Assembly: GCA_017347445.1 (NCBI GenBank)
Contig: AP021856.1
Location: 750,613-814,612, forward strand
Length of the DNA stretch: 64,000 bases
Source: Candidatus Brocadia pituitae
GTDB taxonomy: Bacteria > Planctomycetota > Brocadiia > Brocadiales > Brocadiaceae
Direction: 5' to 3'
Shown: positions 1 to 46,737 of the stretch, in pieces
Layout: each line of letters starts with the position of its first letter
How positions within the stretch are numbered: the stretch's first letter is position 1
Program-made: the position numbers and the translations under genes
Notes under the pieces: generated by a model
Databases searched by the model: none
The model's input: the letters and a program-made list of their open reading frames with translations, nothing else
What the model was told of the DNA's origin: nothing

Positions 1-863
1 CAGTATCCTACGGTAAACGCAAGACCTTCTCCGCTGCAAATCAACTTTCTTACGGCAAGAATAATTAAGAAGGGCACCCACCAGAGTCCAAAAGACCAAA
101 AAAACAGGGAAACCCCTTTTAAAAACGGGAGGAGGTCAGTCAAAGTGCCCCCTACTGTTTGTATATGCTGGTGCAATACGGCACCCGTAATTGCCGTTAC
201 GGCTGCTGCCCCAATATTCATCCAATAAGGCGAGAGAAGGGTGTTGCTATCAAACTGGTAAAACATCAGTCTTAGGATAAGCAATGCCATAAATATCAGA
301 TACAAGCTTGCCCCTACCGACCAGAGTGCAATTGAAAATACCTGAATGAAGAGCACCTGTTTTATGGTTTGCTCTGCAACGATAATTCCCAGCAAGGCCG
401 TAGATTGAGTGCCCACTGTCGCGAAAAACCATCCCCCATGCAAGACGTCCTTAATCCTTCTGTCTTCTGATTTCTGATTTAAGAAGAGGATACTAAACGT
501 GGAAAGTGATATTATTAACCACAGGCCAATGGAAACATACCAGAATATCTGTGCCGTTGTATGGAAGTGAAACATCCTGGAAAAACAAATGCCAAGAAAG
601 CTTACGGCACCCACAATCGTGAAGAGATAAAGGGTTTTCTCCGGATTCAATATTTCCTCTAAGACGTCTTTAAAGAATAATACCGTCTGTGCTGCCTTAA
701 AAATAACCACAGAGAAGAGTATGGCTAAACTTGCAAAAAAAAAGTAAGGGACAATTACCTCATAGCCATACCACTGAGTAAGAGAAGCAATCATAATCGT
801 AGCCATAACGGCAGTAAACCAACGGGTGTCCAATGAATAAGTTGCTATCTTTAGTACGCTCAT
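1..863 (-). CDS. TDT (TehA/SLAC1, C4-dicarboxylate/tellurite-resistance) family anion channel, 3'-truncated by the window edge
   Basis: Absent from the ORF track because it has no stop in the window. Manual translation from ATG 863 gives MSVLKIATYSLDTRWFTAVMAT...LHGGWFFATVGTQS...SPYWMNIGAAAVT, collinear with the 4239..5333 paralog. Confidence 0.9.
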   Translation of the reverse strand, partial: MSVLKIATYSLDTRWFTAVMATIMIASLTQWYGYEVIVPYFFFASLAILFSVVIFKAAQTVLFFKDVLEEILNPEKTLYLFTIVGAVSFLGICFSRMFHFHTTAQIFWYVSIGLWLIISLSTFSILFLNQKSEDRRIKDVLHGGWFFATVGTQSTALLGIIVAEQTIKQVLFIQVFSIALWSVGASLYLIFMALLILRLMFYQFDSNTLLSPYWMNIGAAAVTAITGAVLHQHIQTVGGTLTDLLPFLKGVSLFFWSFGLWWVPFLIILAVRKLICSGEGLAFTVGY

Positions 864-972: not shown

Positions 973-2175
973 CTAAGTTACCCCCACAGCTTTTTTCGTA
1001 TGCATCTTTGGTATGGTCTTTTCTTCCATAAACGAGAGACACATAAGGCACACAAGGGAAACGAAGATAAATCCTAAAGAATAATTGTTCGTATAATCCC
1101 TGAGGGTACCCAGCATAATGGGAAGAAAGAATCCACCGAGACCGCCAGCAGCGCCTACCATTCCTCCAACAGCGCCAGTATCTTTGGGAAAATACTCCGC
1201 TACCAGCTTAAATACAACGCCATTCCCGATACCCAGACAAACACCCATCAAGTAAAAGATGGTGAGTGAAGTCATTAACAACACATTCATATTCAGGAAA
1301 ATGAGTATACCGAGTATCGCTATTGAGAGGACGATTAAAATGCGTCTTCCGGGGATACGATCACCAAGATAACCCCCCAGGATGCGGGAAAAGGTTGTGG
1401 CAAACACAAATATTGATGTGAGACTACCAGCCTTTACGGGGGTTAATTTATAAAAGTCCCGGAGGTAAGAAGGCAACCATAATGAGAAGGTAACAAAGAA
1501 TCCAAAGGTCATGAAATAAAACAGGCAAAAGATCCAGATGAGGTTAGAAGACTTGTATACCTTTATTTTATCACGAAAGGTTGGAGGTTTTATGTTGACG
1601 GGTTTTGGCGCATCTGCAGAGAAAAACCAGTAGACAAAGGCCATTACGAGTAATGGTATCGCGTAGATCATAAATACCTTGTTCCAGCCGAAAGACTCCG
1701 CAAGAAAAGGCGCTCCAAATGTGGCAGCGGCAGAGCCTATATTTCCAACGCCATAAATCCCTAATGCCAACCCCTGTTTTTCTTTTGGATACCACTGTGA
1801 AACTTGTGGAATCCCGATGGCGAATGACGTCCCTATGATACCGAAAAAGAATCCACAAACCAGCAGAAACCCGTAACTGTGCGCAAAGCTTGCCATAAAC
1901 ATGGGGAAAAAGCCAAACAGAAGCAGCACACTAAAAACACGTCTGCCACCAAATTTATCCGTTAAAACGCCAATCGGTACCCTGGCTATAGAACCAAGCA
2001 GCACCGGGGTTGCCAGGAGTAATCCTACGGATGTTGAAGACAACTTAAAGTCTGCTTTCATGTAAACTGCCAGGGGGGAAAAGAGTGTCCAACCTGCAAA
2101 ACAGGTTGCAAATGCAATGGTTGCAAGCACGAGTACCCTCAGATTCCCTGTTTGTACCTGAACAGCCGGATTCAT
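973..2175 (-). CDS. narK: NarK/NNP family nitrate/nitrite MFS transporter (copy 1)
   Basis: 12-TM pattern; both signature Arg present (GSIARVP, FSRILGGYLGD); glycine-rich nitrate signatures GIYGVGNIG and GGMVGAAGGLGGF. Confidence 0.93.
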   Translation of the reverse strand: MNPAVQVQTGNLRVLVLATIAFATCFAGWTLFSPLAVYMKADFKLSSTSVGLLLATPVLLGSIARVPIGVLTDKFGGRRVFSVLLLFGFFPMFMASFAHSYGFLLVCGFFFGIIGTSFAIGIPQVSQWYPKEKQGLALGIYGVGNIGSAAATFGAPFLAESFGWNKVFMIYAIPLLVMAFVYWFFSADAPKPVNIKPPTFRDKIKVYKSSNLIWIFCLFYFMTFGFFVTFSLWLPSYLRDFYKLTPVKAGSLTSIFVFATTFSRILGGYLGDRIPGRRILIVLSIAILGILIFLNMNVLLMTSLTIFYLMGVCLGIGNGVVFKLVAEYFPKDTGAVGGMVGAAGGLGGFFLPIMLGTLRDYTNNYSLGFIFVSLVCLMCLSFMEEKTIPKMHTKKAVGVT

Positions 2176-2397: not shown

Positions 2398-3816
2398 TTA
2401 TGGTTTTACTTCCCAATTTGGCACAGACTCAGACCCTTCCGGCGTTTGGTTGTCATCACTTTTTACAGTTTCACTTTCCACATTCTCAGGGGAAGTGTTT
2501 CCAGGTTTGAAAGTGGGTAACACCCCCTTAAACTTAGAAATATTATCCTTAATAAAGTCTTCGTCTCTTTGCGTCACAATCGAGCCAAAAACGCTTAATG
2601 GATTCTGCACTTTATATTTCTGCTCCCGAAGATATCCACGTTCTTTTCTCAATTCGTAACCATCGATGATGGCTATTATAAACCCCACCATAATAATGCC
2701 GGTTACACCCAGAGCTGTCTTCGTTGGCAGGGACATGCCTTTCAGCACGCATCCAGTCGAAAGCTTCCGGCAAATTAACATTGCGAGGATAAAAGCGGGA
2801 ATTATCATTGCGACCATAAGCGGTCGTATCAGCGAATTAATATTATCTACTACACCAAGAGCCTCATCGGTATCCATTTCCACAATGAGCCCCATGTTTA
2901 AGTCTTTAAGCCATGTCCACGCACCCACGACCTTTAACCCATCATAATCTCTGTATCCCTTTAAATCATAACCGGTGGTTTTCCCCGTAATGCACCGTTT
3001 CACCCCTTTTGTCAGTAAGGTTGTAGTTGGATCCGCTACTTTATGACATGTCCTGCAGATATCATCGGTATTTTTGATCTGGTCTGAGAATCTCGATTGT
3101 GTGATCATGATACCGTCTTTGTTTACGAGATAAGCTTCTCCCGTTTTTCCCCAGGCAACATTTCTCATGCCGTTATTGAGCATGGACGCATCCATCCATA
3201 ACAAAACCGCACCAATTACATCGTGATTTCCCCCCTTAATCGGATAGGAAATAAAGAGAGAAGGTGAATCATCCGCTTGGCCGCCATCCGCAGCAGTATT
3301 CAAAGAATAGTGGATCACATCAGAGATGTATGTTTTGCCGTCGTATAACGTCTCCTGCACATTCCTGAATGGCTTTTCTTTTAAAATATTCACGCCAATC
3401 AGGGATTTTTCACTTTCGGTTGTTAGGTGGATTGTTCCTGCGGCATCACAAATAAATATCCCTTTATAGCCGTAATCTGCCTTTGACAACTCTAACTGTG
3501 TTTTTAGTCTTAAATATTCATGTTCACTTCTTCCACTTGCAAGGCTTACAAAATCCTCATCACCGCGAATAAGGAATTCACTTTGAATCGTGTCGGAGAT
3601 AGCCCTGGCATGTGACGTTCTTTCGTCCCACAGTAAGACAAGCATATCTTTCTGCTTGTTTAAGAATCCCTCCAGATTTCGTTGAACACCCACCATCAGT
3701 TCTTCGCTTGCCTTTGGAAATGCAAGCATTTTAAACAAAATAAGGGGAAATAGCCCTAAAAACACAAACATGGCAACAATAAAAACCCTGCCTTCCTTAA
3801 ACATCTTATTTATCAT
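2398..3816 (-). CDS. Membrane-anchored Cache-domain protein with c-type heme motif, no recognisable output domain
   Basis: N-terminal TM, Cache-like segment (WGKTGEAYLVNKDGIMITQSRF...YRDYDGLKVVGAW), CRTCH motif, then two more hydrophobic helices and a low-complexity tail. Confidence 0.8.
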   Translation of the reverse strand: MINKMFKEGRVFIVAMFVFLGLFPLILFKMLAFPKASEELMVGVQRNLEGFLNKQKDMLVLLWDERTSHARAISDTIQSEFLIRGDEDFVSLASGRSEHEYLRLKTQLELSKADYGYKGIFICDAAGTIHLTTESEKSLIGVNILKEKPFRNVQETLYDGKTYISDVIHYSLNTAADGGQADDSPSLFISYPIKGGNHDVIGAVLLWMDASMLNNGMRNVAWGKTGEAYLVNKDGIMITQSRFSDQIKNTDDICRTCHKVADPTTTLLTKGVKRCITGKTTGYDLKGYRDYDGLKVVGAWTWLKDLNMGLIVEMDTDEALGVVDNINSLIRPLMVAMIIPAFILAMLICRKLSTGCVLKGMSLPTKTALGVTGIIMVGFIIAIIDGYELRKERGYLREQKYKVQNPLSVFGSIVTQRDEDFIKDNISKFKGVLPTFKPGNTSPENVESETVKSDDNQTPEGSESVPNWEVKP

Positions 3817-4238: not shown

Positions 4239-5333
4239 TTAGCCCTTGGCGATATTAGTCATCTGAGGTTGAACAACATTCTCATCTTTCATTTTAGGGG
4301 TTTCTTGTGCGATAGCCGCTTTTATCATAGAGATGATCATATGAATAAAGATAAAGATCCACGCAATATAAGCCACATAGATAAAATATTTTGATATAGT
4401 AGCGATAAAGGGAATCTGGATTGCCTGAGAAAGCTTTATGGTGCATGCAGTGTACATGCCTAAAGGGAAGACCATCGCCCAATAGAGCGAACTGTATTTA
4501 AATGGGGTTTTGTGAATGACGTATTTCCATACCCCAATAATTATCAAAAATGGTAACCACCAGGTGCCGAATGACCAGAAAAACAGGGTAAGTCCTTTTG
4601 TGAAACCTAAGAGATCGGTATAGGGACATGCCACTTTCGGAATATTGAGACAAAGCGCAGAGCCTGCCAGGGTTGTGATAGCGAGGGCGCCCATGTTTAT
4701 CCAATACGGCGGTACCAATGCGTCGGGTGATATCTTAAAAAACACGAGACGATAAATGATGAGCGTAATCAAGACCATATAAAGGGATGAACCAATCATC
4801 CACCATACAAACGAGGAAAATATTACAAAGCTACCACCGGTTCCAAATTGGGGCGCAAGTATGGCGCCAAGAACTGCGACAGATTGCGTTCCTACGGTTG
4901 CAGTTAACCATCCGCCATGTAATACCATCTCAATCCTTTGCTCACAGGCAATAAAGAGAATGCTGAATGTGGATAGCGAAACAATCACCCAGAGAAAAAT
5001 ACCAAAGTACCAAAATGCCTTTGCAACTTCCGGGTGGTTAACAACGATGGCAAACTGCGATCCCAGCACATTTGTACCCGCAACGGTGGTAAAAAAGACA
5101 AGGCTTAGTCTTGGATTGGAAAGATCGGCGTAAAGGTTATTCCAAAACAGCATTACCCGGAGTATCTGTAATAATAAAACAATTGCATAGGCAACGATGT
5201 TCAGATAAAAAAGCCCGTAACTAATTCCGGTGAAACCCAGCAACTTGGCTGCAATGGAAATTATTCCGGTAGACATCACCATTGCAAAATAGGCTGGGTG
5301 AAAAGTCCTGATGGTATTATGAATAACACCCAT
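4239..5333 (-). CDS. TDT (TehA/SLAC1) family anion channel (copy 2)
   Basis: HPAYFAMVMSTG N-terminal motif, about 10 TMs, YWAMVFPLGMY gate-helix motif. Confidence 0.92.
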   Translation of the reverse strand: MGVIHNTIRTFHPAYFAMVMSTGIISIAAKLLGFTGISYGLFYLNIVAYAIVLLLQILRVMLFWNNLYADLSNPRLSLVFFTTVAGTNVLGSQFAIVVNHPEVAKAFWYFGIFLWVIVSLSTFSILFIACEQRIEMVLHGGWLTATVGTQSVAVLGAILAPQFGTGGSFVIFSSFVWWMIGSSLYMVLITLIIYRLVFFKISPDALVPPYWINMGALAITTLAGSALCLNIPKVACPYTDLLGFTKGLTLFFWSFGTWWLPFLIIIGVWKYVIHKTPFKYSSLYWAMVFPLGMYTACTIKLSQAIQIPFIATISKYFIYVAYIAWIFIFIHMIISMIKAAIAQETPKMKDENVVQPQMTNIAKG

Positions 5334-5460
5334 TTGCGTTCATCTCGCCTTGTTAAAAAGATTAAGAATATGGCACAATAATTGGCAACATTCTATCTGA
5401 TAGTAATGAAGTTTTGCAATCCTTTATTTTGTCGTGTCAAATTTTTGATTCAATGCCTAA

Positions 5461-6183
5461 CCAGGATTTCTCACCGATATGTGAGGCAAACCTCCCTATT
5501 TATGGTATAAGATGTTTGTAAGTAACAGATTATGCACAACAAGAGGAGGGATGAAGGTGAAAACAGGGTGTACCGATGCAATAGAATATCAGGAGTTAAG
5601 CGGAGGGAAGGTAATATCGGGATTTTTAAAGGAGGGCAAATAACAACAGACGCTGGTGGGTCTTTTCCTGAGAGAAATAGAACAAGCACGAGGCTTCATG
5701 AAAGAGTTTTCCAAGTGCTTTAGCGATTATCGTCAGTGGCGTATGTGTTACTCAACGAATTAAGACGGGTAGGGCTTTGTTCAACAGAATTCTCACAGGC
5801 ACAGTGCAACACAATCCGTACAAAACTGCTCAAGATTGGCGCACAGGTGAAGGTAAGCGTAAGGAGAATAGCCGTTTGTTTGTCCAGCGCTCATCCCTCT
5901 AAAGAAATCTTTCAGCTTGCGTTCCAAAACATTCGCAAAGCGTATCCCATGCTCTGCTGAGGTTAAGAAAAGGTTTACCCGTGGAGTATGATTGCTAAGC
6001 CGGAGGGGAGCGCTACGCCAAAAATATGCCTTTTTGCGGTATGTCCCGGTGATAGTATCAGTGAAATCATGAAACTATTCATTTTTATTGCAGAACAACC
6101 GAAAAATCTATCCGATAAAGCAACCTTGTAACGCATCCTGAGACCTTTTGATATCACCAATTACCCTCCGTGAAAAATGCGGT
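5461..6183 (+). mobile_element. Internally deleted, non-autonomous IS1380-family element (723 bp)
   Basis: Ends CCAGGATTTCTCAC and GTGAAAAATGCGGT (imperfect inverted repeats), flanks CTAA/CTAG. Frameshifted transposase N-terminus (FKGGQITTDAG...FSKCFSDYR) is joined to the C-terminus (AYVLLNELRR...IRTKLLKIGAQVKVSVRRI). Confidence 0.85.
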
Positions 6184-6522
6184 CTAGATTGCGATCTCAC
6201 CTGACTCATTAGTACGAACACGGTAAACGTTTTCCACATGATAAACAAATATCTTCCCATCGCCAATACTCCCCGTCTGAGATACGTTGATGATGGTATT
6301 AACGATATTATCCATATCAATATCTTTTACGGTTATTTCAAGTTTGATCTTTGACAGCAGATCAATCCGAAATCTTCTCCCTTGCCATACCTGACTTACG
6401 CCCTTTTGAGTACCATGTCCGGTAACCATGGTAACAGTCATTCCGGGATAACCCAACTCTAATAAAGCATCTTTTACGACATCAAATTTATCCGGCCTGA
6501 TTATTGCTTCTACTTTTTTCAT
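6184..6522 (-). CDS. glnB: Nitrogen regulatory PII protein (GlnB/GlnK family) with divergent T-loop
   Basis: 112 aa, aligns without gaps to the canonical PII sequence; Q39, K58, GDGKIF and RVRT conserved. Confidence 0.95.
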   Translation of the reverse strand: MKKVEAIIRPDKFDVVKDALLELGYPGMTVTMVTGHGTQKGVSQVWQGRRFRIDLLSKIKLEITVKDIDMDNIVNTIINVSQTGSIGDGKIFVYHVENVYRVRTNESGEIAI

Positions 6523-6730
6523 AATAAAGCCTCCAATCCATTGAACTTTATCCGATGTCTAATTGGTTGCACTAACAACATTAGCTATGGGGTCTATCAT
6601 CCTAATTTTCCCCTATTACTGTATTATCCATCTCCAAACGTCAAGTTTTGCCTTGCGATTATCTTTGCATCAAACATTCGTATTCATAATCTTCTCTGAT
6701 TCCATTCTGTACACATTTGTATTCTTGTCA

Positions 6731-6759
6731 TTGACATAGGATACTTCATGATGTATACT
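6731..6759 (+). promoter_or_regulatory. Sigma-70 promoter of narK copy 2
   Basis: TTGACA (6731-6736), 17 bp spacer, TATACT (6754-6759). It overlaps the track's ATG at 6748, so the true start is ATG 6814 with RBS AGGAG at 6801-6805. Confidence 0.8.
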
Positions 6760-6813
6760 ATTTCAAGTATATTATCGGTTACTTTACGAAAAGGAAATAA
6801 AGGAGAATTATTT

Positions 6814-8037
6814 ATGAATATGGATGTGTCAGCGAACGAATCGACGCAAACACCCGATGGCAATACGAGGGTAATGATACTTGCAACCGTAGCATTTGCG
6901 CTATGTTTTGCCGGTTGGACCTTGTATGCTCCATTAGCAGTATATTTTCAGGATGAATTTAAACTGTCTTCCACTATGGTGGGATTATTACTTGCTACCC
7001 CGGTATTGCTTGGGTCCCTCGCAAAAATTCCTATGGGTATACTGACAGACAAATATGGAGGAAGGCTCGTTTTTACGATTATGCTCCTGTTTGGGTTTGT
7101 CTCTCTTTTTTTTACCGGTTTTGCCCGTAGTTATAGTCTTTTGTTAGTGTGTGGACTCTTTTATGGTTTAATAGGTTCCTCCTTTGCTGTCGGAATTCCG
7201 CATGTTTCAGGATGGTATCCGAAGAAAAAGCAAGGCCTTGCATTAGGGGTTTATGGTGTGGGAAACGCGGGCACTGCACTTTCCGCATTTGGGGCGCCAC
7301 TCATCGCAGAATCAATGGGATGGGATAAGGCATTTATTTTTTATGCATTTCCGTTACTTCTTATGGCATTTATCTACTGGTTTTTCACCTCCGATGCCCC
7401 AAAACCGGCGAATGTAAAGGTTTCAACACTGGGCGACAAACTAAAACTCTTTAAATCTTCCAGACTGGCATGGATCTTTTGCCTGTTTTATTTTATGTTT
7501 TTTGGATTCTTCGTATGCTTTTCGGTATGGTTACCATCGTATTTATGTGATTTTTATAGTATTTCACCGATAAAGGCCGGCAGTTACACTTCTATATTTG
7601 TATTTCTTTCAGCTTTTACCAGAATTTTAGGCGGTTATCTGGGTGATAAATTCAATGGAAGAAAAATAATGATACTCCTTACCGTAGTTGTACTTGTCGT
7701 AGTGGTGTTTCTCAATTTAAACTTGACACTAGCAACCTCACTCATGGTGTTTTATGTTATGGGAACTTGTCTTGGTATTGGCAATGGTGTCGTTTATAAA
7801 CTCGTGGCAGAATACTTTCCGAAAGACACGGGGGCTGTGGGCGGCCTGGTTGGTGCAGCAGGCGGTCTTGGAGGGTTCTTTCTTCCTATAATTTTAGGCA
7901 CGATTAAGGATTATACCGACAATTATTCCCTCGGATTTATCTTTGTTTCCCTCGTCTGCCTTATGTGTCTTTCGTTTATGGAGGAAAATACCTTGGCGAG
8001 CACAAACCAAAAAGTGGCAAATCCAATGCAGGCATGA
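6814..8037 (+). CDS. narK: NarK/NNP family nitrate/nitrite MFS transporter (copy 2)
   Basis: Close paralog of 973..2175; start reassigned from promoter and RBS; first signature Arg is Lys (GSLAKIP). Confidence 0.93.
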   Translation: MNMDVSANESTQTPDGNTRVMILATVAFALCFAGWTLYAPLAVYFQDEFKLSSTMVGLLLATPVLLGSLAKIPMGILTDKYGGRLVFTIMLLFGFVSLFFTGFARSYSLLLVCGLFYGLIGSSFAVGIPHVSGWYPKKKQGLALGVYGVGNAGTALSAFGAPLIAESMGWDKAFIFYAFPLLLMAFIYWFFTSDAPKPANVKVSTLGDKLKLFKSSRLAWIFCLFYFMFFGFFVCFSVWLPSYLCDFYSISPIKAGSYTSIFVFLSAFTRILGGYLGDKFNGRKIMILLTVVVLVVVVFLNLNLTLATSLMVFYVMGTCLGIGNGVVYKLVAEYFPKDTGAVGGLVGAAGGLGGFFLPIILGTIKDYTDNYSLGFIFVSLVCLMCLSFMEENTLASTNQKVANPMQA

Positions 8038-8698
8038 GATGAAGAAGGAAGAGTTTAACGTGCATCAGAGTGATGACGGGAGTTGGACTGCATTCGAGCC
8101 GTCTGGTATAAGACGGCTCGAACCAAAGTTTATCTATAGTGTGCGTCTTATATAAGTATACATGAAAATACCCATTGCGAACAGAGCAAAGCATTCCCTG
8201 TCTTAGAAGTTGCTTTGCTCTGATCGCATGCTGCTTTTTTTGTTGTTTACTATAATTTCGAATGGGCTTCCGCATGCGAGAGTTCAAATCAGGAGATGTG
8301 CTTACATGATGCAAGTTTGTTTCTTTAATTCTAAAGACATTTATCCTCCTGCAGGTTCAGGATGAAAACGAGATACGTACAAAACCGATCTTGGTTAGCC
8401 TTTTGCGCGGGATTTGTTGAACGCTTGTCAGACTATAATGGGCGGAGAACAAACTCTTGCTATGTCAGGGTAGGGCATCTTTGCTGCTTGGATGTTAAAA
8501 AATTTTTAAACTGACAATTCATATACAACAAATTATTTATTAATAATAAAATTAGAATATCTCTTTCTGATGGTGAATGAAATGGGGTAAAAAACAGGAT
8601 TTTTCGTAACAGTTTAGTTTTTTGAAAAAATAGGGAAATTTGAACCTACGCAGAACCATTCGTGGACGTTTTGAATAATAGGGGGTTGCCTGAGTCTC

Positions 8699-8822: not shown

Positions 8823-8851
8823 AACAACTTTCTTTAAGCGTTTACGATAAT

Positions 8852-9574
8852 GTGGCAAATTATATGAATAAAAAAACATTGACACTATCTGCTTCAAAAG
8901 ATTTAAAATTAGGTGCATTGTTAACATTCATCGGAGTTAATCTTCGGTTTGTCGTAGGAAACATAATTCACGGCCTTATCTATTTTAATTTTCTTCAGTC
9001 TGGCAATCATGAACATAGGTATGAAGTGCACGTACCAAATCTGCCAGATATGTGCGGAGATATAGCAATAATGATGGTTTTTGCCTCCGCATATTTTTTC
9101 ATTACAGCCGGTTCTGTAAAGAAACGAAGAAACGGTAGTGCTGATAATTTTCCCCTGACGAATGCTCAAGATTTACCGCCCGTTGGAGAATCAATGTCTT
9201 GGGTAAAATCCCTCTTTTTTATAAGCATCATCGGTTTTGGTTTGTATTTTTTTTCAAAATATTTTTTTTCTATAGAACTAGAGACATTTTTTGAAGAAGA
9301 TGAGGAATCTGGCATCTCATTTATTTTGCATATTACAAACTACTTGGTCAGGTTATGTTCAGTTTTTGCTTTTGTTACCGTTTATTGCAGATATCTGTCA
9401 TTGAAAAGAACCACGACATTACTACTTTATGTTTTCTTTTTTACACGGTTCCTTTTTGCAACCAATATGCTCGAATTTGTCCATACCTATGATTTATATA
9501 TCGGTGCTTCTATTTTGGATTTTTTAACGCCCATTTTGATTGTTTATTCCATGATCAGTCTATTTATAATCTGA
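8852..9574 (+). CDS. Hypothetical multi-pass membrane protein
   Basis: 240-aa ORF with several hydrophobic segments; no family recognised; start uncertain. Confidence 0.5.
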   Translation: MANYMNKKTLTLSASKDLKLGALLTFIGVNLRFVVGNIIHGLIYFNFLQSGNHEHRYEVHVPNLPDMCGDIAIMMVFASAYFFITAGSVKKRRNGSADNFPLTNAQDLPPVGESMSWVKSLFFISIIGFGLYFFSKYFFSIELETFFEEDEESGISFILHITNYLVRLCSVFAFVTVYCRYLSLKRTTTLLLYVFFFTRFLFATNMLEFVHTYDLYIGASILDFLTPILIVYSMISLFII

Positions 9575-9951
9575 GCAGAAGATGTTGCGATTCAATAATC
9601 ACTACGAAACTGACGATATTTGTGTACAAGACTCTATATAAGTCTTTGAACTTTTGATAACTTCTTAGTATTCCCAATCCACCATCCTTGAAGTATTGAA
9701 GGAATTTTTTAGATCTCCTGATACAACAAAGTCTCTCATTCCTCATTTAGGCAATCCGTACTAACGTAAAAGTCGTTGAGCGTCTATTATGAACGGTATA
9801 CGCCCAATACAATTCGATTAATTATCAAGTTTTATTTCAAATTAACAATTTTTTTATTTATAATGCCTCTTTTATTTGTTCATTTTTCATTTGTTTTTAC
9901 TTTTGCCAAATTATGTATTTAGTTTGATTACCTTTAGAAAAAGGAGGTACC

Positions 9952-10554
9952 GTGCAGGTCAGAAAAGCTACAGCGATCAGGAGGCAGCAGATTGTAGATA
10001 TTATACGGAACATTATTTCTTCCAAGGGGATTGAATATGTTACCATAAGCGAAATAGCGGGAAAAATAGGAACTACCAAAGGCGCTATTTATCGGCATTT
10101 CAAGAGCAAAAGAGATATATTAAGCCTGCTTATAGATAACATTGAGGAAACTCTCATGGAAGCGCTGGATAGCGCAATGGTAGAAAAGGACCCAATACAG
10201 AATCTTAAGAATATTCTTTTTGCTCAACTTATTTTAGCAAAAAACCGACGTAAAACATCCTTTGTTGTTATCATGGGGGCTATACAGTTTAGTGATCCTT
10301 TTATCCGTAAAAAGATTTTAAAATTGATACAGAAGTATCTCCGGCGGATAGAAAAGTTGCTTCTGAGTGCAATAGGACTTGGATTACTAAAACGAGATAT
10401 TGACCCCAAGATATCTGCTATTGTATTTATGGGTCTCATTCAGTCTACCATAACGGTGTGGTCTTATAAAAATTTCAACTTTGCTCCTCAAAAAATCCAC
10501 GCCCATCTATGGAATGTTTATTGCGAGGGAATAGGAGTTTCGTCTGATGCGTGA
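9952..10554 (+). CDS. TetR/AcrR family transcriptional regulator
   Basis: HTH VTISEIAGKIGTTKGAIYRHFKSK; GTG start with AGGAGG RBS. Confidence 0.93.
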   Translation: MQVRKATAIRRQQIVDIIRNIISSKGIEYVTISEIAGKIGTTKGAIYRHFKSKRDILSLLIDNIEETLMEALDSAMVEKDPIQNLKNILFAQLILAKNRRKTSFVVIMGAIQFSDPFIRKKILKLIQKYLRRIEKLLLSAIGLGLLKRDIDPKISAIVFMGLIQSTITVWSYKNFNFAPQKIHAHLWNVYCEGIGVSSDA

Positions 10555-10558
10555 GGTC

Positions 10559-10921
10559 TTAAACGGACCATACCTCGAGGCGGTTTCCTTCCGGATCAAA
10601 TAAAAAAAAGGCGCGTCCTCCCCAGGGATGGTCCTTAATTTTGCCTACTTCAACCCCTTGTGTTTTCAAGGTCTGCCACGTCTCATCTGCTTTATCTACT
10701 TGAAAGGCTAGAGTTAAACCCTGCCCCCCGGAGCTCTTGATTGTTGCACGTTGTTCATGGGCAATACTTATCCGTACATGATCGGTTACTTTAAACTCTA
10801 CAAACCAGTCGTTTTCAAACGTAACCGGAAAACCTAACCTATGCCGATAAAAAGAGACCATTTCTTTCCAGCGTTGACAATAGAGTATGGTGTTAACAAC
10901 GAGTGTTACATCTTTCATCAT
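10559..10921 (-). CDS. VOC/glyoxalase family protein
   Basis: FYRHRLGF...LAFQVD...DHPWGGRAFFLFDPEGNRLEV. Confidence 0.92.
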   Translation of the reverse strand: MMKDVTLVVNTILYCQRWKEMVSFYRHRLGFPVTFENDWFVEFKVTDHVRISIAHEQRATIKSSGGQGLTLAFQVDKADETWQTLKTQGVEVGKIKDHPWGGRAFFLFDPEGNRLEVWSV

Positions 10922-10971
10922 TCACCGAGAAACTGTTTCATACGTATATTTAATACGAAAAATCACGCTGA

Positions 10972-13395
10972 TCATTTTGCTTTTACGAACGGTGAGGAAA
11001 GATTACTGTTGAGTTTTGATACAAAGGCATCATACGAAATGGAAAGCCTGGCATCGCTATTATATGAAGTATCATAAGCGTTCGGCGTTACAGGGAAGTT
11101 TGAAGACCGGGTCTCACCGACTGTATAAATATCTCCCTTCCGGTCTATAACAAAAGAGCGGGCAATGTCCCGGTAATTTCCGCCTAAAAAGGTAGAAGCA
11201 AGTAGCCTCGTTAACCTCTCATCTAGCTTTGTGAGAAAGGCATCAAAAAGGACACCTTTCGAGGTAGTATAAGCACCCGCGGTTGTTGGGAAATCAGACG
11301 AGCCGGTGTAACCGCCCACATACACATTGCCATCCGGACCCAAGGCAATAGAATTAGCAACATCATCATCTGCACCTCCCAAAAAGGTAGACGCAAGAAG
11401 TCTTGTTAAATCACCATTAAATTTTGACACAAAGGCATCCCCATTATGAAAACCAGTGTCATACGCGGAATGGGTCGTGGGAAAGTCTAACGACTCAGTT
11501 TGGCCAACCACGTAAACATGGTTCTGTGCATCCAGGGCGATAGCGGTCGCAGAATCATCGGTAACACCCCCCAAATATGTCGACGCAAGAATGTGAGTTA
11601 AATCCCAATTTAATTTTGTAAGGAAGGCATCGCCAAATCCTCCGCCAAAGGAAATACTAAAGGCATTGAGGCTGACGGGAAAGTCAAACGACCAGGTATC
11701 GCCAGCTACGTATATATTCCTTTGCGAGTCCACAACAATGGCGTTTCCATAATCGTTTGAAGTTCCGCCCAAATAGGTAGAAGAAACGATGTGGCTTAAA
11801 TTCCAATCGAGCTTTGCGATGAAGGCATCTCCATCTTTGAAACCAGCATCATAAACGCCGGGAGTTGTCGGAAAGTTTGGCGATAGTGTTCTGCCTGTGA
11901 CGCATAGGATAATTCCGCTTGGACCGAAGGTAATAGCATTTGCTGAATCGTCTGAAGAACCTCCCAGAAACGTGGATGCCAAAAGATCTGTCAAATCTCC
12001 GTTGAATTTTGCTAAAAAAGCGTCGCTGTAACCATTTTTGGTTGTATCGTAGGCATCGTCGGTTGTTGGAAAGTTTGACGATGAAGTCTGACCGGCCAGA
12101 TAAACATTGTTTTTCCGATCAAGAACGATAGAACGCACGTAGTCCTCAGACGAACCGCCCAGAAAAGTAGATGCAAGCAGTTGCGTGAGATCCGTATTGA
12201 GTTTTGATACAAAGATATCATCGGTGTTATAGGAAACATCAAAGGCACCTGTAGTTGTTGGAAAGTTTGGTGATGTGGTATAACCAGCAACATAAATATT
12301 ATGATCCGCATCTATGGCTATGGAGTTGCCATAGTCAGATTCAACCCCGCCAATATAGGTAGAGGCAAGGAGGGGATCGATAACAAGCTCCTTTGTTTTG
12401 TCGTAGGCAACAACCCTAAAACCGTAAACATTTTCGGCCTCATGATTTGGGTTTCGGGATTTGCATTTCTGACAGGGTAGATTTGTTTCCGTAGCCAGGT
12501 CTCCGCCTCCTGACTGTTGAATTTTATAATCTACCTGCACGATTACTTTTGTGCCATCAATTTCCTGATAAGCCGTAGGTTTTGTAAATTTGATCGTCCC
12601 CAAATCTGTTGCAACCTCAAGCTGGCCTGCACTATCAATACTTATTGCATGAGCTCCGCTGAGTTTCATGGTTATTATTTCCGGGTCTGCGTGTGGCTTC
12701 AGATAAAATCGTTTTTCGATATTGTTGCTATAAGCCCTCAGTCTTATTTGTATTCCCTCGTATACTTCTCCAAGATTTATCACCTTATAGGCAGGGACAT
12801 TCCTCCTCCATTGGGCAGGATCATTTCCTCTAAAATAGCTGACCTGAGTTAATACCTCTTCCTCACCCTGTACGGTATTAATGTTCCCGCCAGCAAATAC
12901 CTCTTTTAGGGCGAGCCCTCTTGACTGAGATTCCGGATGGTTGATGGTGGGTGGTGGGATGGTGCACTTACTATAAGGAGCAACAATTTTGAATATTGTA
13001 TCGTGGAATGAAACCAGGAATGTATCAGGAATTTTGGCTCTTAAGAGCATAACGTCATCAAGTAGTCGCTGCCCAAATGCCGTTTCCCGGGTTCCTGACT
13101 CCTTGCCCAGGACTCGTAGTTCTTTCTTCTTGTTCTTTGGTAGCAGGGAATAGACAATTTCTCCTTCTTTTGTGATGAATACCTTGCCCACAAAGGTATC
13201 GGCATGATACTTCACTTTCTCATGGGTTTGTCCTGCATTGGAGATAAAAGGCAGGTGCAACTGTTCTGCCTTTTGGATGAAGTCTTTATGAAACGGCTTG
13301 TTCTCACTGGCCTGAACGACTAAGAGTGGCAGACCTCCAAAAGCAAGATACAAGATAAGTTTAGAAATAAAAAGGACAGAGATTTTTATTGACAT
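10972..13395 (-). CDS. Secreted SBBP beta-propeller repeat protein
   Basis: Signal-like N-terminus from ATG 13395. N-terminal domain VSYFRGNDPAQW...YEGI, then about 7 repeats of LLASTxLGGxxxDxxxSIAxD...YVAGxTxSxNFPTT..AYD...DAFxxK. Confidence 0.88.
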   Translation of the reverse strand: MSIKISVLFISKLILYLAFGGLPLLVVQASENKPFHKDFIQKAEQLHLPFISNAGQTHEKVKYHADTFVGKVFITKEGEIVYSLLPKNKKKELRVLGKESGTRETAFGQRLLDDVMLLRAKIPDTFLVSFHDTIFKIVAPYSKCTIPPPTINHPESQSRGLALKEVFAGGNINTVQGEEEVLTQVSYFRGNDPAQWRRNVPAYKVINLGEVYEGIQIRLRAYSNNIEKRFYLKPHADPEIITMKLSGAHAISIDSAGQLEVATDLGTIKFTKPTAYQEIDGTKVIVQVDYKIQQSGGGDLATETNLPCQKCKSRNPNHEAENVYGFRVVAYDKTKELVIDPLLASTYIGGVESDYGNSIAIDADHNIYVAGYTTSPNFPTTTGAFDVSYNTDDIFVSKLNTDLTQLLASTFLGGSSEDYVRSIVLDRKNNVYLAGQTSSSNFPTTDDAYDTTKNGYSDAFLAKFNGDLTDLLASTFLGGSSDDSANAITFGPSGIILCVTGRTLSPNFPTTPGVYDAGFKDGDAFIAKLDWNLSHIVSSTYLGGTSNDYGNAIVVDSQRNIYVAGDTWSFDFPVSLNAFSISFGGGFGDAFLTKLNWDLTHILASTYLGGVTDDSATAIALDAQNHVYVVGQTESLDFPTTHSAYDTGFHNGDAFVSKFNGDLTRLLASTFLGGADDDVANSIALGPDGNVYVGGYTGSSDFPTTAGAYTTSKGVLFDAFLTKLDERLTRLLASTFLGGNYRDIARSFVIDRKGDIYTVGETRSSNFPVTPNAYDTSYNSDARLSISYDAFVSKLNSNLSSPFVKAK

Positions 13396-14094
13396 ATTAA
13401 TGCCTGAGAAGAAAATGAAGTTTACAAAAATAGTCACGATATAATAATGCAGTTTTGTAAATGATGCAATGAAATTGTAAAACTTTTCGGTAAAGAGATA
13501 GAGAATGTATCGCAACCATATTGACTACTCCAGCTTCGCAAGGAGGAACATTCGTCGTGAGCTTATTTGGGAAACAAAATATATATTCAAGATGAATTAT
13601 ACGATGGTAACAGGGTGGCATGGAAAAATTCGTGTGACCGTGTTGGGCTTGCACGACATTGTTTACGAAATCTTCATTCTAACATTGTGGATGGTCAATA
13701 CAAGGCAGACCACGCAGACACAAAATATGACGCAGTATTGCAAAAACACGGCATGCATTGCTTGGCCGTGCCACCCCATTAGTTTATAGCGAGCCTGCAT
13801 CAAGTTTATCAATCACAAATGGTGAGTTTCTTGAGTATGACTTTAGAAAAACGAAGGTTTTAAATAGTAGTCATGATGCATCGGACTGTTTCATGAGCAT
13901 TGCATATTTCATCTAAAATGATAAAATAAGAACTTATGCATAACAGTATGCTGTTGATTTAAGGTGGGTTTCGTGATTCGCATTGTTCCTCACATGGAAA
14001 GTCTGGATGTGTGGACGGTAAAGCTTTTACATCGAATGATATGAGGTAGAGAAGAAGGGTTGGGGTACATCGTAAATTAGGAGGAGAATGTATT

Positions 14095-17000
14095 ATGGTT
14101 TGGAAGTGTGTCGTGCGTAAAAGGGAAAATAGGATTGTCCTTGTTTCTTTTTCTCAAATGAGATTCTTTCTCTCTTTGAGTGTCTGCTTGTTATGGTTAT
14201 GTACGTGTGTGAATGCACAAGCACAAAGTGCTGAAAAAATGGATGTCGAAATAAAGCTTTCGGAAAAGGGCGTAATTGTAAGAGGTGAAGATTTTCAGAA
14301 GGCAAAAATAAGAGATGAAGAGATCAAGGCTGCAGCCTCAAAGTCGATAGAAGAGATAAATTCTTCTATTGCCAATGTAGAGCGTGACGTAAAAACAATG
14401 AGTATCCATCTTGAAAATCTCAAGCAGGAAAGAATGGATTGCTCGGGCAAGGACGTCAGTCAGAAATTTTTAGAATTACTGGAGAAGGAAATTGCCATTG
14501 TTCAGGAAAAGATTGATATCGACCATGAGCAGATAGAGACCTATAAAGACCGGATCGAGGTGCTTCGTGATCAATCAAAAGCTCATGACGAGATCGTGGT
14601 ATTGTTAAAGTCGATCCTTGGGCTGGAAGAGATCCTTTTGACTTCCCATGAACATGCTCCGATTGTGAAAAAAGAGGCAGAAATTGCAAAAAATTATATC
14701 ACCGCAGTGCAAGCCAGTATTAAAGAAAAGGAATCAGTCATCGTCTTTTTTACCAATAGATTGGAAGAGATTAAATTAAAGGTATCCGAAGACGAAAGAA
14801 AACTTGCAACGTATTTAGGATCTCTGAAAATGGAAATAGCGGATACCGGGCATGTTACTCCTTTACAGGAAAAGATTGAGAGTATTTTATTGTGGAAAAA
14901 AGCCATTGGCGCTCAGTGGATTACCATATTTGAAACACGGCTGGGTACGTCTAAGATCCGGTACGATAAGACGCTGATGGAATTAAAGAATGCAGAATTC
15001 AATGCGGCGTTTTTAGCTGAAAAGGCAAAGCGTTTGGAAGAAAAGGTGAAAACGGAAGAATTAGTAAAAAAACAGGAAGAATTGGATGCGGCGAAAAAGG
15101 CCGAGGAGGAAAGCCGGAAAATTGCTGAAAGAACGAAGGCTGAAGTTGAAAAGACCTTGCAGGAAGCGGCAAGGAAAAGTGAAGAAATTGCCCTGGAACA
15201 AATGACAACAACTTCCCCGGAAAAGAAGCGTATATTAGAGTTAGAGGCTGATATCCACAAACAAGCCGGGCTTGTTGCCAAAAGAAAAGAAGAACTTATT
15301 ACCGAGGGTGCGCAGATATACAAAGACTTTACCGAATACAAAAAGTTAGAGGCGGATATCGGCCTTTTATTGAACAGGGGAGGAACAACAAAAGAGATCG
15401 ACGAATCACTCATAAAAATAGAGACGGACATGAAGCGGTTCTCTGAGTCAATTTCAGCAGTGGAAAGCCTTCTCCCCCTGATAAAGGAAGAGAAAAAACT
15501 CATTTCCGAAAATATTGTTAAATCTAAAGAGGAGATAGCAAAAATCAAAAATGAAGCGACCTCTTTCACGGACAAAGAATTGGCGCGTCAGGCAATAGAG
15601 CATGCAAACCATATCATGAAAACGCTGGAAGAACAGGCTGAACTTCTATCTACGAGACTGGACAGATTACAGGAACGACGGAAAATCAAAAAAAATACAC
15701 TCCTCCTGCTGGAAGAGACCAAAGAAAAATTGATTACCCTGAAAGCAGCCAATGTTTGGATGAGAGTAGAAAGCACGATTTCCTTCCAGACAATCCAATC
15801 GGTGTTTAGTGATTTCGTGGATTGCTATAACCGGCTTGATTCGCTCTATCAAATAATTCCTGCACAGACAAAGAATTTCCTATCGTATATCTCCACTAAA
15901 AGGCTTTCATTTGCTTTCTGGATAAGATTCTGTGGATTAACAGGACTCATTGCCGTGTGGTATTTTTCAAAAAAATACCTTCGCCGGTGGAGCACGTTCA
16001 AAACACAGGCATGGTATGAAGCGTCAGACATATCTTACTATAAATCAAGGCTTTTTCCCAGCCTTTTCATTGTGCTCCAGAAGAGTATAAATGCCATATG
16101 GCTGGCTATCCTTTCCGTATCTATACCCGGTATTCTGGGTATAAAAGCCCCCGTAATAACAGGGACAATATATGTATTAACCTTTCTTGCGGTATATAAA
16201 ATCCTAAGACACCTCCTTTTTGAGTCTTTTAGCCCTGAAAAAGGGGATAGAAAGTTAGTCACCCCTTTGGCATATATTTCTCGTACACATCTTTATAAAT
16301 CATTAAATGTCATTGTATTGTTTTCCTTTGTTTCTTTGTCACTCATAGCCGTTCTCACTACGTTTGGATACAGAAATGATGTAGTCGAATTGTTCTGGTA
16401 TGTATACCGGATGGGGATTTTAATTCTTTTGCTATGGCTCGCAACACAGAAAACACTGATATTCAAATTGCTGCCGAGCGCCGAAACTCAATTTGGCAAA
16501 TTTATTCACCGCATAATAACGGTAATCTATCCCGTTTTTATTACCTTTGTTGTATTGTTATTTGCGATAAGGACTCTCGGATATCCGGTACTTTCCTATG
16601 TGTTATTAAGGACATGCATAAAGAGTTTTATCATCGTGTTTATCGCTTTCTGGGTATGGAAATATTTGTATCATCGTTTGGTTTACATAAGAGAAAAGCG
16701 TCTTAAGAGAGACAACCTCAAAAAAGACAGTCCTGAGGAAAAAAGATTTGGTGCGGTTACGGTGATCTATCATATTTCACTGAACTACCTCGTTTCACTT
16801 ATCGCAGCAATAATTGTTATCCGCCTATGGATCACGACCTTTCGTGATGCGGTAGGTTCCCCGGCGGCTCCTTATCTGGTCCAGAAGATATTTGGGCAGA
16901 TAGGGATAATTTTCGGGGCTATTGGCAGTGGACTACGGTATCGTTTCTTCCTGGAAGAAGGAAGATATACAACACCGATAAAGATTATCATAGCGTTATT

Positions 17001-46616: not shown

Positions 46617-46737
46617 CATCACGACAATGGTAAACCATGAGTGATCTTGGGGCGCAAGGAAAAGGGTCTTGTGGGCCGTTAAACAGCCTAAACTGTTCAA
46701 AACGGCTGAGATAAAGATAGCCTTACTCCCGAAGATG
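46617..46737 (+). ncRNA. c-di-GMP-I (GEMM-I) riboswitch aptamer
   Basis: P1 CATCACG/CGAAGATG, GGTAAACC, GTGA (GNRA) loop, GGGGCGCAAG, AGGGTCT...AGATAGCC, conserved C before the P1 3' strand; long P2 hairpin GCCGTT/AACGGC. Confidence 0.85.

Follow-up and report, generated by a model that had tools for sequence, protein, structure and literature searches.

An IS1380-family relic between a PII signal protein gene and a SLAC1-family gene in the anammox bacterium Candidatus Brocadia pituitae

We analysed a stretch of 64,000 nucleotides of the Candidatus Brocadia pituitae genome (GenBank assembly GCA_017347445.1, contig AP021856.1, positions 750,613 to 814,612 of the forward strand; hereafter the window, in whose numbering all positions are given). 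In this window a gene for a PII signal protein is located upstream of TDT2, a gene for an anion channel or transporter with the SLAC1/TehA fold, and a relic of an IS1380-family insertion sequence (IS) lies between the two. A first-pass annotation had taken them for a regulator-channel gene pair similar to GlnK-AmtB. Our comparison with related genomes gave a different picture: the pairing is not conserved, and it was created at the IS. We consider it likely that the locus consists of two independent units that were juxtaposed by the IS1380-family element, and that the PII protein is a trans-acting sensor tied to nitrite/nitrate transport rather than part of a conserved regulator-channel pair.

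Genomic context of the PII gene and TDT2

The PII gene (6184-6522, 112 aa, Pfam P-II 101.1 bits) and TDT2 (4239-5333, 364 aa, Pfam SLAC1 176.1 bits) are both on the minus strand and are separated by a gap of 850 bp (5334-6183). The gap holds the IS1380-family relic (5457-6183, plus strand), which was recognized by matches to PF13701 and NF033539 and which keeps both ends but has most of its transposase deleted. In the direction of transcription, the genes of the minus strand follow each other as PII, gap, TDT2, a dCache_1 protein, the transporter gene NarK_a and a second SLAC1-family gene, TDT1. Another transporter gene, NarK_b, adjoins the PII gene in divergent orientation in the window and in the relatives L010, L011 and L012. 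The PII gene, the relic and the co-oriented TDT2 are thus present as described at first pass, and once the relic of about 727 bp is taken out, about 123 bp of native sequence remain in front of TDT2, close to the distance of about 125 bp that had been claimed.

The IS-free relatives Brocadia WS118 (L011), L012 and B. carolinensis (L013) have one shared sequence from the PII stop codon onward, which contains a convergent rubredoxin gene and then a Na+/H+ exchanger of about 800 aa. The exchanger is also shared by Jettenia ecosi (L014), where it is farther downstream, and in WS118 it is followed by an open reading frame (ORF) of 146 aa and a FocA/NirC gene. The homology of the window to its Brocadia relatives ends exactly at 6183. 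In Brocadia sp. DTUAMX2 (L010), which has 95-96% nucleotide identity to the window over 5727-8571 and 8829-16772, the IS directly after the PII gene is shared with the window in a less deleted state, and beyond it there are a mobA-like gene and other unrelated genes but no TDT gene.

The same was seen from the other side of the gap. A locus with a TDT2 of 98% identity (L030) has the order TDT2-dCache-NarK_a-TDT1 on a contig that ends at the edge of the IS. The TDT2 orthologues of three other Brocadia assemblies (L031-33) are arranged in tandem with TDT1, and the gene upstream of them is a divergent Exo_endo_phos gene. The Scalindua orthologue (L115/116) stands alone, and in two further Brocadiales lineages (L117; L034 and L118) the orthologue lies behind a divergent small gene with a ScdA_N domain. 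No PII gene adjoins the TDT2 orthologues in the other Brocadia, Scalindua and Brocadiaceae genomes sampled. A PII gene occurs within 10 kb of a TDT2 orthologue in L034 and L118 only, at a distance of 5.6-5.8 kb with five to six genes between, and there it sits directly upstream of a FocA/NirC gene and not of TDT.

As a background set, we used 95 generic PII loci from a metagenome scan with the alignment of the PII clade, which were picked up by generic motifs (IGDGKIF, ENVYRIRT) and were relatives with at most 58% identity. A TDT homologue was found in the flanks of none of these 95 unrelated loci. The direct adjacency of PII and TDT genes was confined to the window, being absent from L010-L014, L004, L120-123, L031-33, L115 and L117. 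Because the IS-free relatives have a different PII 3' flank, the TDT2 orthologues lack a PII gene and the background loci lack a TDT gene, there was probably never an ancestral arrangement without the IS in which glnB preceded TDT by 125 bp. By these sequence comparisons, the IS is a rearrangement breakpoint and not a simple insertion. The GlnK-AmtB-like gene pair had been proposed together with a neighbourhood comparison for which the lack of conserved adjacency elsewhere, along with a lack of nucleotide-dependent binding, was named beforehand as the refuting result, and the former was what we found. The PII-TDT pair as proposed is not a system.

The transposase frame of the relic is on the plus strand, antisense to the PII gene. 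Searches by tblastn with the transposase fragments of L010 showed that the N-terminal 38 aa (5512-5625) and the last 95 aa or so (5664-5957) are kept, and the C-terminal part corresponds to positions 365-433 of the 435 in PF13701. The element resembles the IS1380 family in these matches and in being multi-copy in the source communities. It differs in that only about 130 of about 430 transposase residues are retained; there is no intact DDE transposase, and the copy in the window is a relic rather than a functional member. Its left edge was placed at about 5456-5460, where the homology to the IS-free TDT2 upstream regions (L030, L031-33) stops and loose contig ends occur, and its right edge at 6183, where the homology to the IS-free relatives begins at the PII stop codon and the adjoining stretch of the relic is multi-copy in metagenomes. 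A search of the relic gave no convincing terminal inverted repeats or target duplications. As no duplications were recognisable, insertion and recombination were judged by the comparison with IS-free relatives instead. Of the loose-end sequences from other flanks of the IS, only one could be assigned to a fetched locus, and it matched the intact transposase of L010. Contigs from RNA runs join 5650 to 6084, 5733 to 6082 and 5795 to 6137, omitting 341-433 bp of the relic; such contigs probably stem from versions of the IS with other deletions, in related strains or in other copies.

Promoters and transcription

TDT2 appears to be an autonomous unit with an upstream region of its own. The native 123 bp in front of it (5334-5456, minus strand) have 95% identity to L030 and 80% to L031-33, where no PII gene is found upstream, and a promoter scan placed a promoter-like site at 5419-5390.

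The PII gene in turn has a promoter of its own. A near-palindromic core of about 75 bp between PII and narK_b (6708-6782, both strands), identified by promoter scan and conservation, is kept upstream of PII within Brocadia and Jettenia only. Within it, two sigma70-like promoters overlap completely and point in opposite directions, one to PII and the other to the divergent gene. The latter is NarK_b in the window, dCache-NarK in B. sinica and, in Jettenia, a gene for a membrane protein of 240 aa. The conserved hexamers of the core are TTGACA-17-TATCAT one way and TTGACA-17-TATACT the other way, with GTAAAC/GTTTAC half-sites flanking them. In the window they read TTGACA-17-TATACT on the plus strand and TTGAAA-17-TATCCT on the minus strand, so that the PII-side hexamers are weakened (TTGAAA, TATCCT), as they also are in L010. 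An Rfam scan of 5300-6800 at E values up to 1 found nothing in the PII leader of about 185 nt or in the gap, and a search for shared 10-mers in the upstream regions of distant PIIs of the same clade found nothing common to five or more groups.

The depth of assembled contigs from four metatranscriptomes was 131-300 for PII and 22-100 for TDT2, with PII/TDT2 ratios of 10.7, 10, 1.6 and 4. In X20, the depth dipped to about 10 immediately in front of TDT2; the bin upstream of TDT2 had a depth of 42-72 in X25-X27, about equal to that of TDT2. The depth rises again over dCache, NarK_a and NarK_b. In X20, the depth over the 3' part of the relic (299.9 at 5881-6183) was that of PII (299.5) and then fell, which suggests that PII transcripts read into the relic. 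There was no sign of a shared PII-TDT2 transcript, as far as contig depth, a crude measure, can indicate.

The PII protein and its clade

The PII protein matches Pfam P-II (PF00543) with 101.1 bits, compared to a cut-off of 25, and its residues 1-106 cover the whole profile (1-102 of 102). It scored below the equivalog cut-offs of NCBIfam for both the GlnB model (117.1 vs 202 bits) and the GlnK model (93.8 vs 181) (NF007946, NF008111), and its best homologues are Brocadia PIIs with 94-97% identity. The T-loop is GTQKGVSQVWQGRRFRID (G37-T-Q-K-G-V-S-Q-V-W-Q-G-R-R-F-R-I-D54). A residue-by-residue alignment to the solved PIIs 2eg1 and 7p52 bore out the reading made at first pass, namely T38, Q44, Q47 and F51 with the T-loop WQGRRF and with Q39 and K58 kept. 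All the ligand residues are present (Q39, K58, the loop G84-x-x-G87-D-G-K90-I-F, R101 and R103), and they are invariant or nearly so across the clade. With a dN/dS (ratio of nonsynonymous to synonymous substitution rates) of 0.05-0.2, the gene is under purifying selection, and judging from its sequence the protein is a working sensor rather than a decaying copy. The possibility of a degenerating paralogue was rejected on account of this ratio together with the expression of the gene.

The first-pass annotation had regarded the T-loop as re-engineered, and this was true only to some extent. The usual T-loop among the 120 best homologues is GHGNQKGISEMWRGR[RK]FRIDLLSK. A residue other than R at position 38, W46, R49, R50 and F51 are common to the anammox PII clade and are not peculiar to the PII of the window; position 38 is Q in the canonical 2eg1 and V in 7p52, and Q44 is common to the window's subclade and the B. 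sinica group. The loss of R47, in comparison, is specific to the small Brocadia subclade of the window, with H in L010-L013 and Q in the window only, and R47 is kept in nearly all other members of the F51 clade. Because H47 is already found in relatives without a TDT gene beside PII, it cannot be an adaptation to TDT.

The substitution of Tyr51 by F51 had been taken to mean that the protein cannot be uridylylated. F51 is indeed present, in the window and throughout the clade, and the tyrosine of GlnD-modified PIIs is lacking. However, this is of limited meaning, since it is largely in Proteobacteria and Actinobacteria that GlnD modifies Tyr51, and since even in E. coli the regulation of AmtB by GlnK does not depend on this modification (PMC4285133).

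In a neighbour-joining tree, the F51 clade was separate from a Y51 clade. The Y51 PIIs lie in amtB-PII-amtB clusters (Kuenenia L007, L124), and all four PIIs of Kuenenia have been reported to adjoin Amt genes (PMC7438415). An F51 PII (L034) and a Y51, amtB-linked PII (L124) came from one genome, GCA_040960315.1; the two types are therefore paralogues. On the basis of tree and gene context, the F51 PIIs form a paralogous clade specific to anammox bacteria and separate from the Y51 PIIs that these genomes encode beside amtB. Neither the 64-kb window nor any of the sampled F51 loci contained an Amt homologue.

Transporter neighbourhoods and the function of the PII protein

The F51 PIIs are found repeatedly near nitrite/nitrate transporter genes. 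In L120-123, the order is a 66-aa ORF, a dynamin-like GTPase, PII, a protein of 84 or 95 aa with a CxxC...CxxC pattern, and FocA-FocA. In L034 and L119, it is the 66-aa ORF, PII, the 84-aa protein and FocA, and L118 has the same order without a match to the 84-aa protein. These FocA/PII modules, which belong to metagenome-assembled genomes of other Brocadiales, extend over 7349-13928 in L120, 6997-13179 in L122, 16464-20117 in L034 and 43-1640 in L119. The window lacks the zinc-ribbon protein of 84-95 aa, for which Pfam has no family. In B. sinica, HPP-NarK-dCache is divergent from PII, and in WS118 and Jettenia a FocA gene is located 2.9-3.6 kb from PII. The partner gene of the F51 PII thus changes between FocA/NirC, in the other Brocadiales genomes, and NarK, in Brocadia, yet it stays a transporter of nitrogen oxyanions in most of the arrangements sampled. 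The first-pass annotation had named NarK as the alternative target in a new class of PII targets; these neighbourhoods are consistent with that part of the proposal.

For anammox bacteria, nitrite is a toxin as well as a substrate; they have to take it up and to release nitrate, in both cases across several membranes. The control of these nitrite/nitrate fluxes is described as not understood (PMC7438415). A PII paralogue that is no longer linked to amtB and is encoded along with FocA/NirC and NarK is a concrete candidate for their regulator, and the SLAC1-type TDT genes among the NarK/FocA genes are candidate nitrite/nitrate channels. The anammox literature that we searched contained no mention of an association of F51 PIIs with formate-nitrite transporter (FNT) or NarK genes, or of the TDT genes. 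The family of the window's PII is a known one, in which this PII forms a new subgroup, and its association with FNT and NarK genes is previously undescribed.

If the locus was formed as we suggest, the first unit would be the PII gene, preceded by a conserved promoter of its own that overlaps the one of the divergent narK_b. Its ancestral 3' flank, with the convergent rubredoxin gene, the Na+/H+ exchanger and FocA further on, would have been replaced. The second unit would be the TDT2-dCache-NarK_a-TDT1 cluster, in which TDT2 carries its own upstream region, and an IS-mediated rearrangement would have set PII beside it. The PII trimer would read ATP/ADP and 2-oxoglutarate as a sensor of energy and of carbon/nitrogen status and might tune nitrite/nitrate transport in trans via FocA/NirC or NarK, perhaps with the zinc-ribbon protein as an intermediary where it is present. 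Such control would be akin to that of NrtABCD by the cyanobacterial PII, and to the way in which GlnK acts on AmtB and SbtB on SbtA as valve plugs. TDT2, if it is a target of PII at all, would be one among several, and its adjacency is no evidence for that.

Several points weigh against this explanation. With about 12 contexts for PII and about 7 for TDT2, the sample is small and phylogenetically non-independent, and it gives a pattern, not a statistic. In B. carolinensis (L013) and Jettenia (L014), there is no transporter of nitrogen oxyanions immediately beside PII. The function proposed for the PII protein is read from its gene neighbourhood. FocA is pentameric and NarK monomeric as far as known, and the docking of trimer on trimer as in GlnK-AmtB is not simply transferable to them. 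The TDT2 orthologues at 5.6-5.8 kb from an F51 PII in L034 and L118 may reflect a looser association between PII and TDT. Finally, as the window's subclade lost an R47 that is conserved in the clade, the target of its PII may have changed.

A more specific possibility, which we raise tentatively and find somewhat doubtful, is that the clade marked by F51, W46, R49 and R50 is a dedicated one that split from the amtB-linked GlnK and controls nitrite/nitrate channels (FocA/NirC, NarK and possibly those of the TDT/SLAC1 type) directly or via the 84-aa zinc-ribbon partner. The new pairing caused by the IS would then have been tolerated or even favoured within one regulon. If this is true, these channels would be a new class of PII targets, with a gating of the catabolic substrate of anammox.

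It is unlikely, though conceivable, that the protein is a GlnB-type PII with ordinary housekeeping tasks, for example in glutamine synthetase regulation or on N-acetylglutamate kinase (NAGK) or acetyl-CoA carboxylase, with the FocA/NarK linkage as inherited synteny of a region rich in nitrogen transport genes and the neighbours uninformative. All canonical ligand-binding residues are kept, and PII proteins have many targets on which they act in trans (PMC4285133). Which genes immediately adjoin PII differs between lineages, and contexts without an adjacent transporter exist, in L013 and, within 2.9 kb, in L014. However, the same genomes hold other PII paralogues of the amtB-linked Y51 type, and the protein of the window falls below the cut-offs of both the GlnB and the GlnK equivalogs. 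Moreover, the F51 clade keeps a transporter of nitrogen oxyanions nearby despite the switch from FocA to NarK or dCache-NarK-HPP and despite differing surroundings.

Among known systems, GlnK-AmtB is comparable in that the protein of the window is a canonical PII of 112 aa with a T-loop and with the residues for ATP/ADP and 2-oxoglutarate kept, and in that sister paralogues in the same anammox genomes lie in amtB-glnK clusters. It differs in that there is no amtB at this locus or beside the sampled F51 members, the plugging residue R47 is Q in the window and H in the closest relatives, the GlnK equivalog cut-off is not reached, and the channel gene next to PII is not paired with it in a conserved manner. 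The nearest precedent for a trans-acting PII in nitrite/nitrate transport is the cyanobacterial PII-NrtABCD system, in which PII tunes the uptake of nitrogen oxyanions by 2-oxoglutarate and energy status (PMC6603209, PMC10945777). NrtABCD is an ATP-binding cassette (ABC) transporter whose NrtC regulatory domain is bound by the core of PII and not by its T-loop (PMC10945777). The genes are unlinked there, whereas the candidate partners in anammox bacteria are FNT channels, NarK transporters of the major facilitator superfamily (MFS) and possibly TDT. SbtB-SbtA, described as a "valve plug", likewise has a gene of the PII superfamily beside an anion transporter gene, that of the bicarbonate transporter SbtA (bioRxiv 10.1101/2023.08.10.552651). 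However, SbtB belongs to the divergent PII-like proteins, has cAMP and AMP as ligands and is paired with SbtA in a conserved manner, whereas the PII of the window is canonical and its pairing with TDT is not conserved.

The TDT2 protein

TDT2 matches Pfam SLAC1 (PF03595) with 176.1 bits, compared to a cut-off of 27.9, but stays below the cut-off of the TIGR00816 subfamily (92 bits vs 237.25). Its AlphaFold (AF2) model had a mean predicted local distance difference test (pLDDT) score of 78.7 and a predicted template modelling (pTM) score of 0.82. The top 22 Foldseek matches of the model were all SLAC1 or TehA (probability 1.00) with template modelling (TM) scores of 0.53-0.77 (0.60-0.77 for 21 of the 22), and no other family was among the significant matches. 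By domain, and by the predicted ten-helix fold, TDT2 thus belongs to the SLAC1/TehA family, to which TehA, SLAC1/SLAH and Ssu1 belong, although its identity to solved members is only 12-17% and searches with TDT2 or its alignments gave no sequence-level match in the PDB. Orthologues across anammox genera have 63-98% identity, with an invariant F289-P290 within the motif W-x-M-V-F-P-L-G. This motif presumably resembles that of SLAC1 and is no more than a lead as regards the pore-occluding phenylalanine of the family (F262 in TehA, F450 in SLAC1). Compared to the plant SLAC1, TDT2 has no long cytosolic regulatory domains.

TDT2 is located among NarK genes in the window and among FocA genes in L034 and L118. 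Its orthologues are often divergent from the small gene with a ScdA_N/DUF1858 domain (L034 9445-9861, L117 9226-9420, L118 2546-2743). The ScdA_N domain is that of iron-centre repair proteins linked to nitrosative stress, which gives a hint of a connection of TDT with nitrite or NO. The TDT-family pump Ssu1 of yeast exports nitrate and nitrite according to a report cited elsewhere (Cabrera 2014, cited in PMC8456426), and such export, as far as this second-hand account goes, fits the position of TDT2 among NarK and FocA genes. From these neighbourhoods, the ScdA_N gene, the fold and the transport by Ssu1, the most economical guess is that TDT2 is probably a nitrite/nitrate-related anion channel. 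A homologue of 504 aa (P0227, 69% identity) is fused to a response-regulator receiver domain (PF03595 and PF00072), and the domain fusion suggests that some anammox TDTs may be controlled by phosphorylation.

Could the PII protein nevertheless be the dedicated gate of a trimeric TDT2, docking trimer on trimer and inserting a re-engineered T-loop into the pore as a plug, in the manner of GlnK on AmtB? SLAC1/TehA proteins are trimers, TDT2 has their fold, and the adjacency and shared orientation of the two genes are real in the window. In addition, the tip of the T-loop is changed by the subclade-specific R47H/Q, and a TDT2 orthologue is less than 6 kb from an F51 PII in L034 and L118. However, the adjacency was created at the IS breakpoint and is missing from all IS-free relatives, from every other context of a TDT2 orthologue and from all 95 generic loci. 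TDT2 has its own conserved upstream region and a lower RNA depth than PII in varying ratio, and H47 arose where no TDT gene is beside PII. The T-loop is strongly basic (K40, R49, R50, R52 and no E44), and it is not evident how it would plug the pore of an anion channel. We regard a specific PII-TDT2 gate as possible in principle but very improbable; nothing beyond the strain-specific adjacency speaks for it.

Physical linkage of PII and TDT2

The relic contains about 160 bp (5760-5918 approximately) of identical multi-copy sequence, and short public contigs alone cannot prove the linkage of PII and TDT2 across it. However, such contigs support both sides, at single-copy depth. Contigs from independent runs support the connection of TDT2 to the unique deletion junction of the relic (5266-5796, 5537-5759), and contigs at single-copy depth support that of the IS end to PII (5919-6140, 6126-6266). 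Of the sampled words of the region, 61-89% were present in 20 public runs. An assembly chimaera through the multi-copy IS1380 sequence might be suspected from the many alternative flanks that the multi-copy 3' portion of the IS has in metagenomes (its depth is raised, and contigs end loosely at 5730 and at 6076-6182), the other genes beyond the same IS in L010 and the break of the L030 contig at the IS edge, but as both flanks are covered by independent contigs, the unbridged repeat is shorter than usual insert sizes and the public runs contain most of the region's words, such a misassembly is unlikely and the join is hardly to be taken for an artefact.

Other features of the window

The dCache_1 membrane sensor-like protein downstream of TDT2 (2398-3816, minus strand, 472 aa) matched Pfam dCache_1 with an E value of 3e-10, which is below the gathering score. 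It has 67% identity to its B. sinica orthologue, whose gene is divergent from PII there. NarK_a, a NarK-type MFS transporter (973-2175, minus strand), was identified by TIGR00886 (248 bits) and tblastn and has 69% identity to NarK_b. TDT1 (1-863, minus strand), found by tblastn and cut by the window edge, has 39% identity to TDT2; its full-length orthologue in L030 has 418 aa and lies in the same gene order. Between dCache and NarK, the window contains at 2233-2382 a 50-aa remnant, with 52% identity, of a PAS-like ORF of 130 aa that occupies this place in B. sinica (L004 5800-6192), and the remnant is also found in L030.

NarK_b, a NarK-type MFS nitrate/nitrite transporter (6748-8037, plus strand), was supported by TIGR00886 (231 bits) and Pfam MFS_1. 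Its longest ORF begins within the promoter core shared with PII, and the alignment to NarK_a and orthologues indicates that the true start is probably M23 or M25 (6814 or 6820). Farther away, at 46619-46733 on the plus strand, a c-di-GMP-I riboswitch aptamer (37.5 bits, compared to a gathering score of 35) was found 5' of a 653-aa ORF at 46790-48751.

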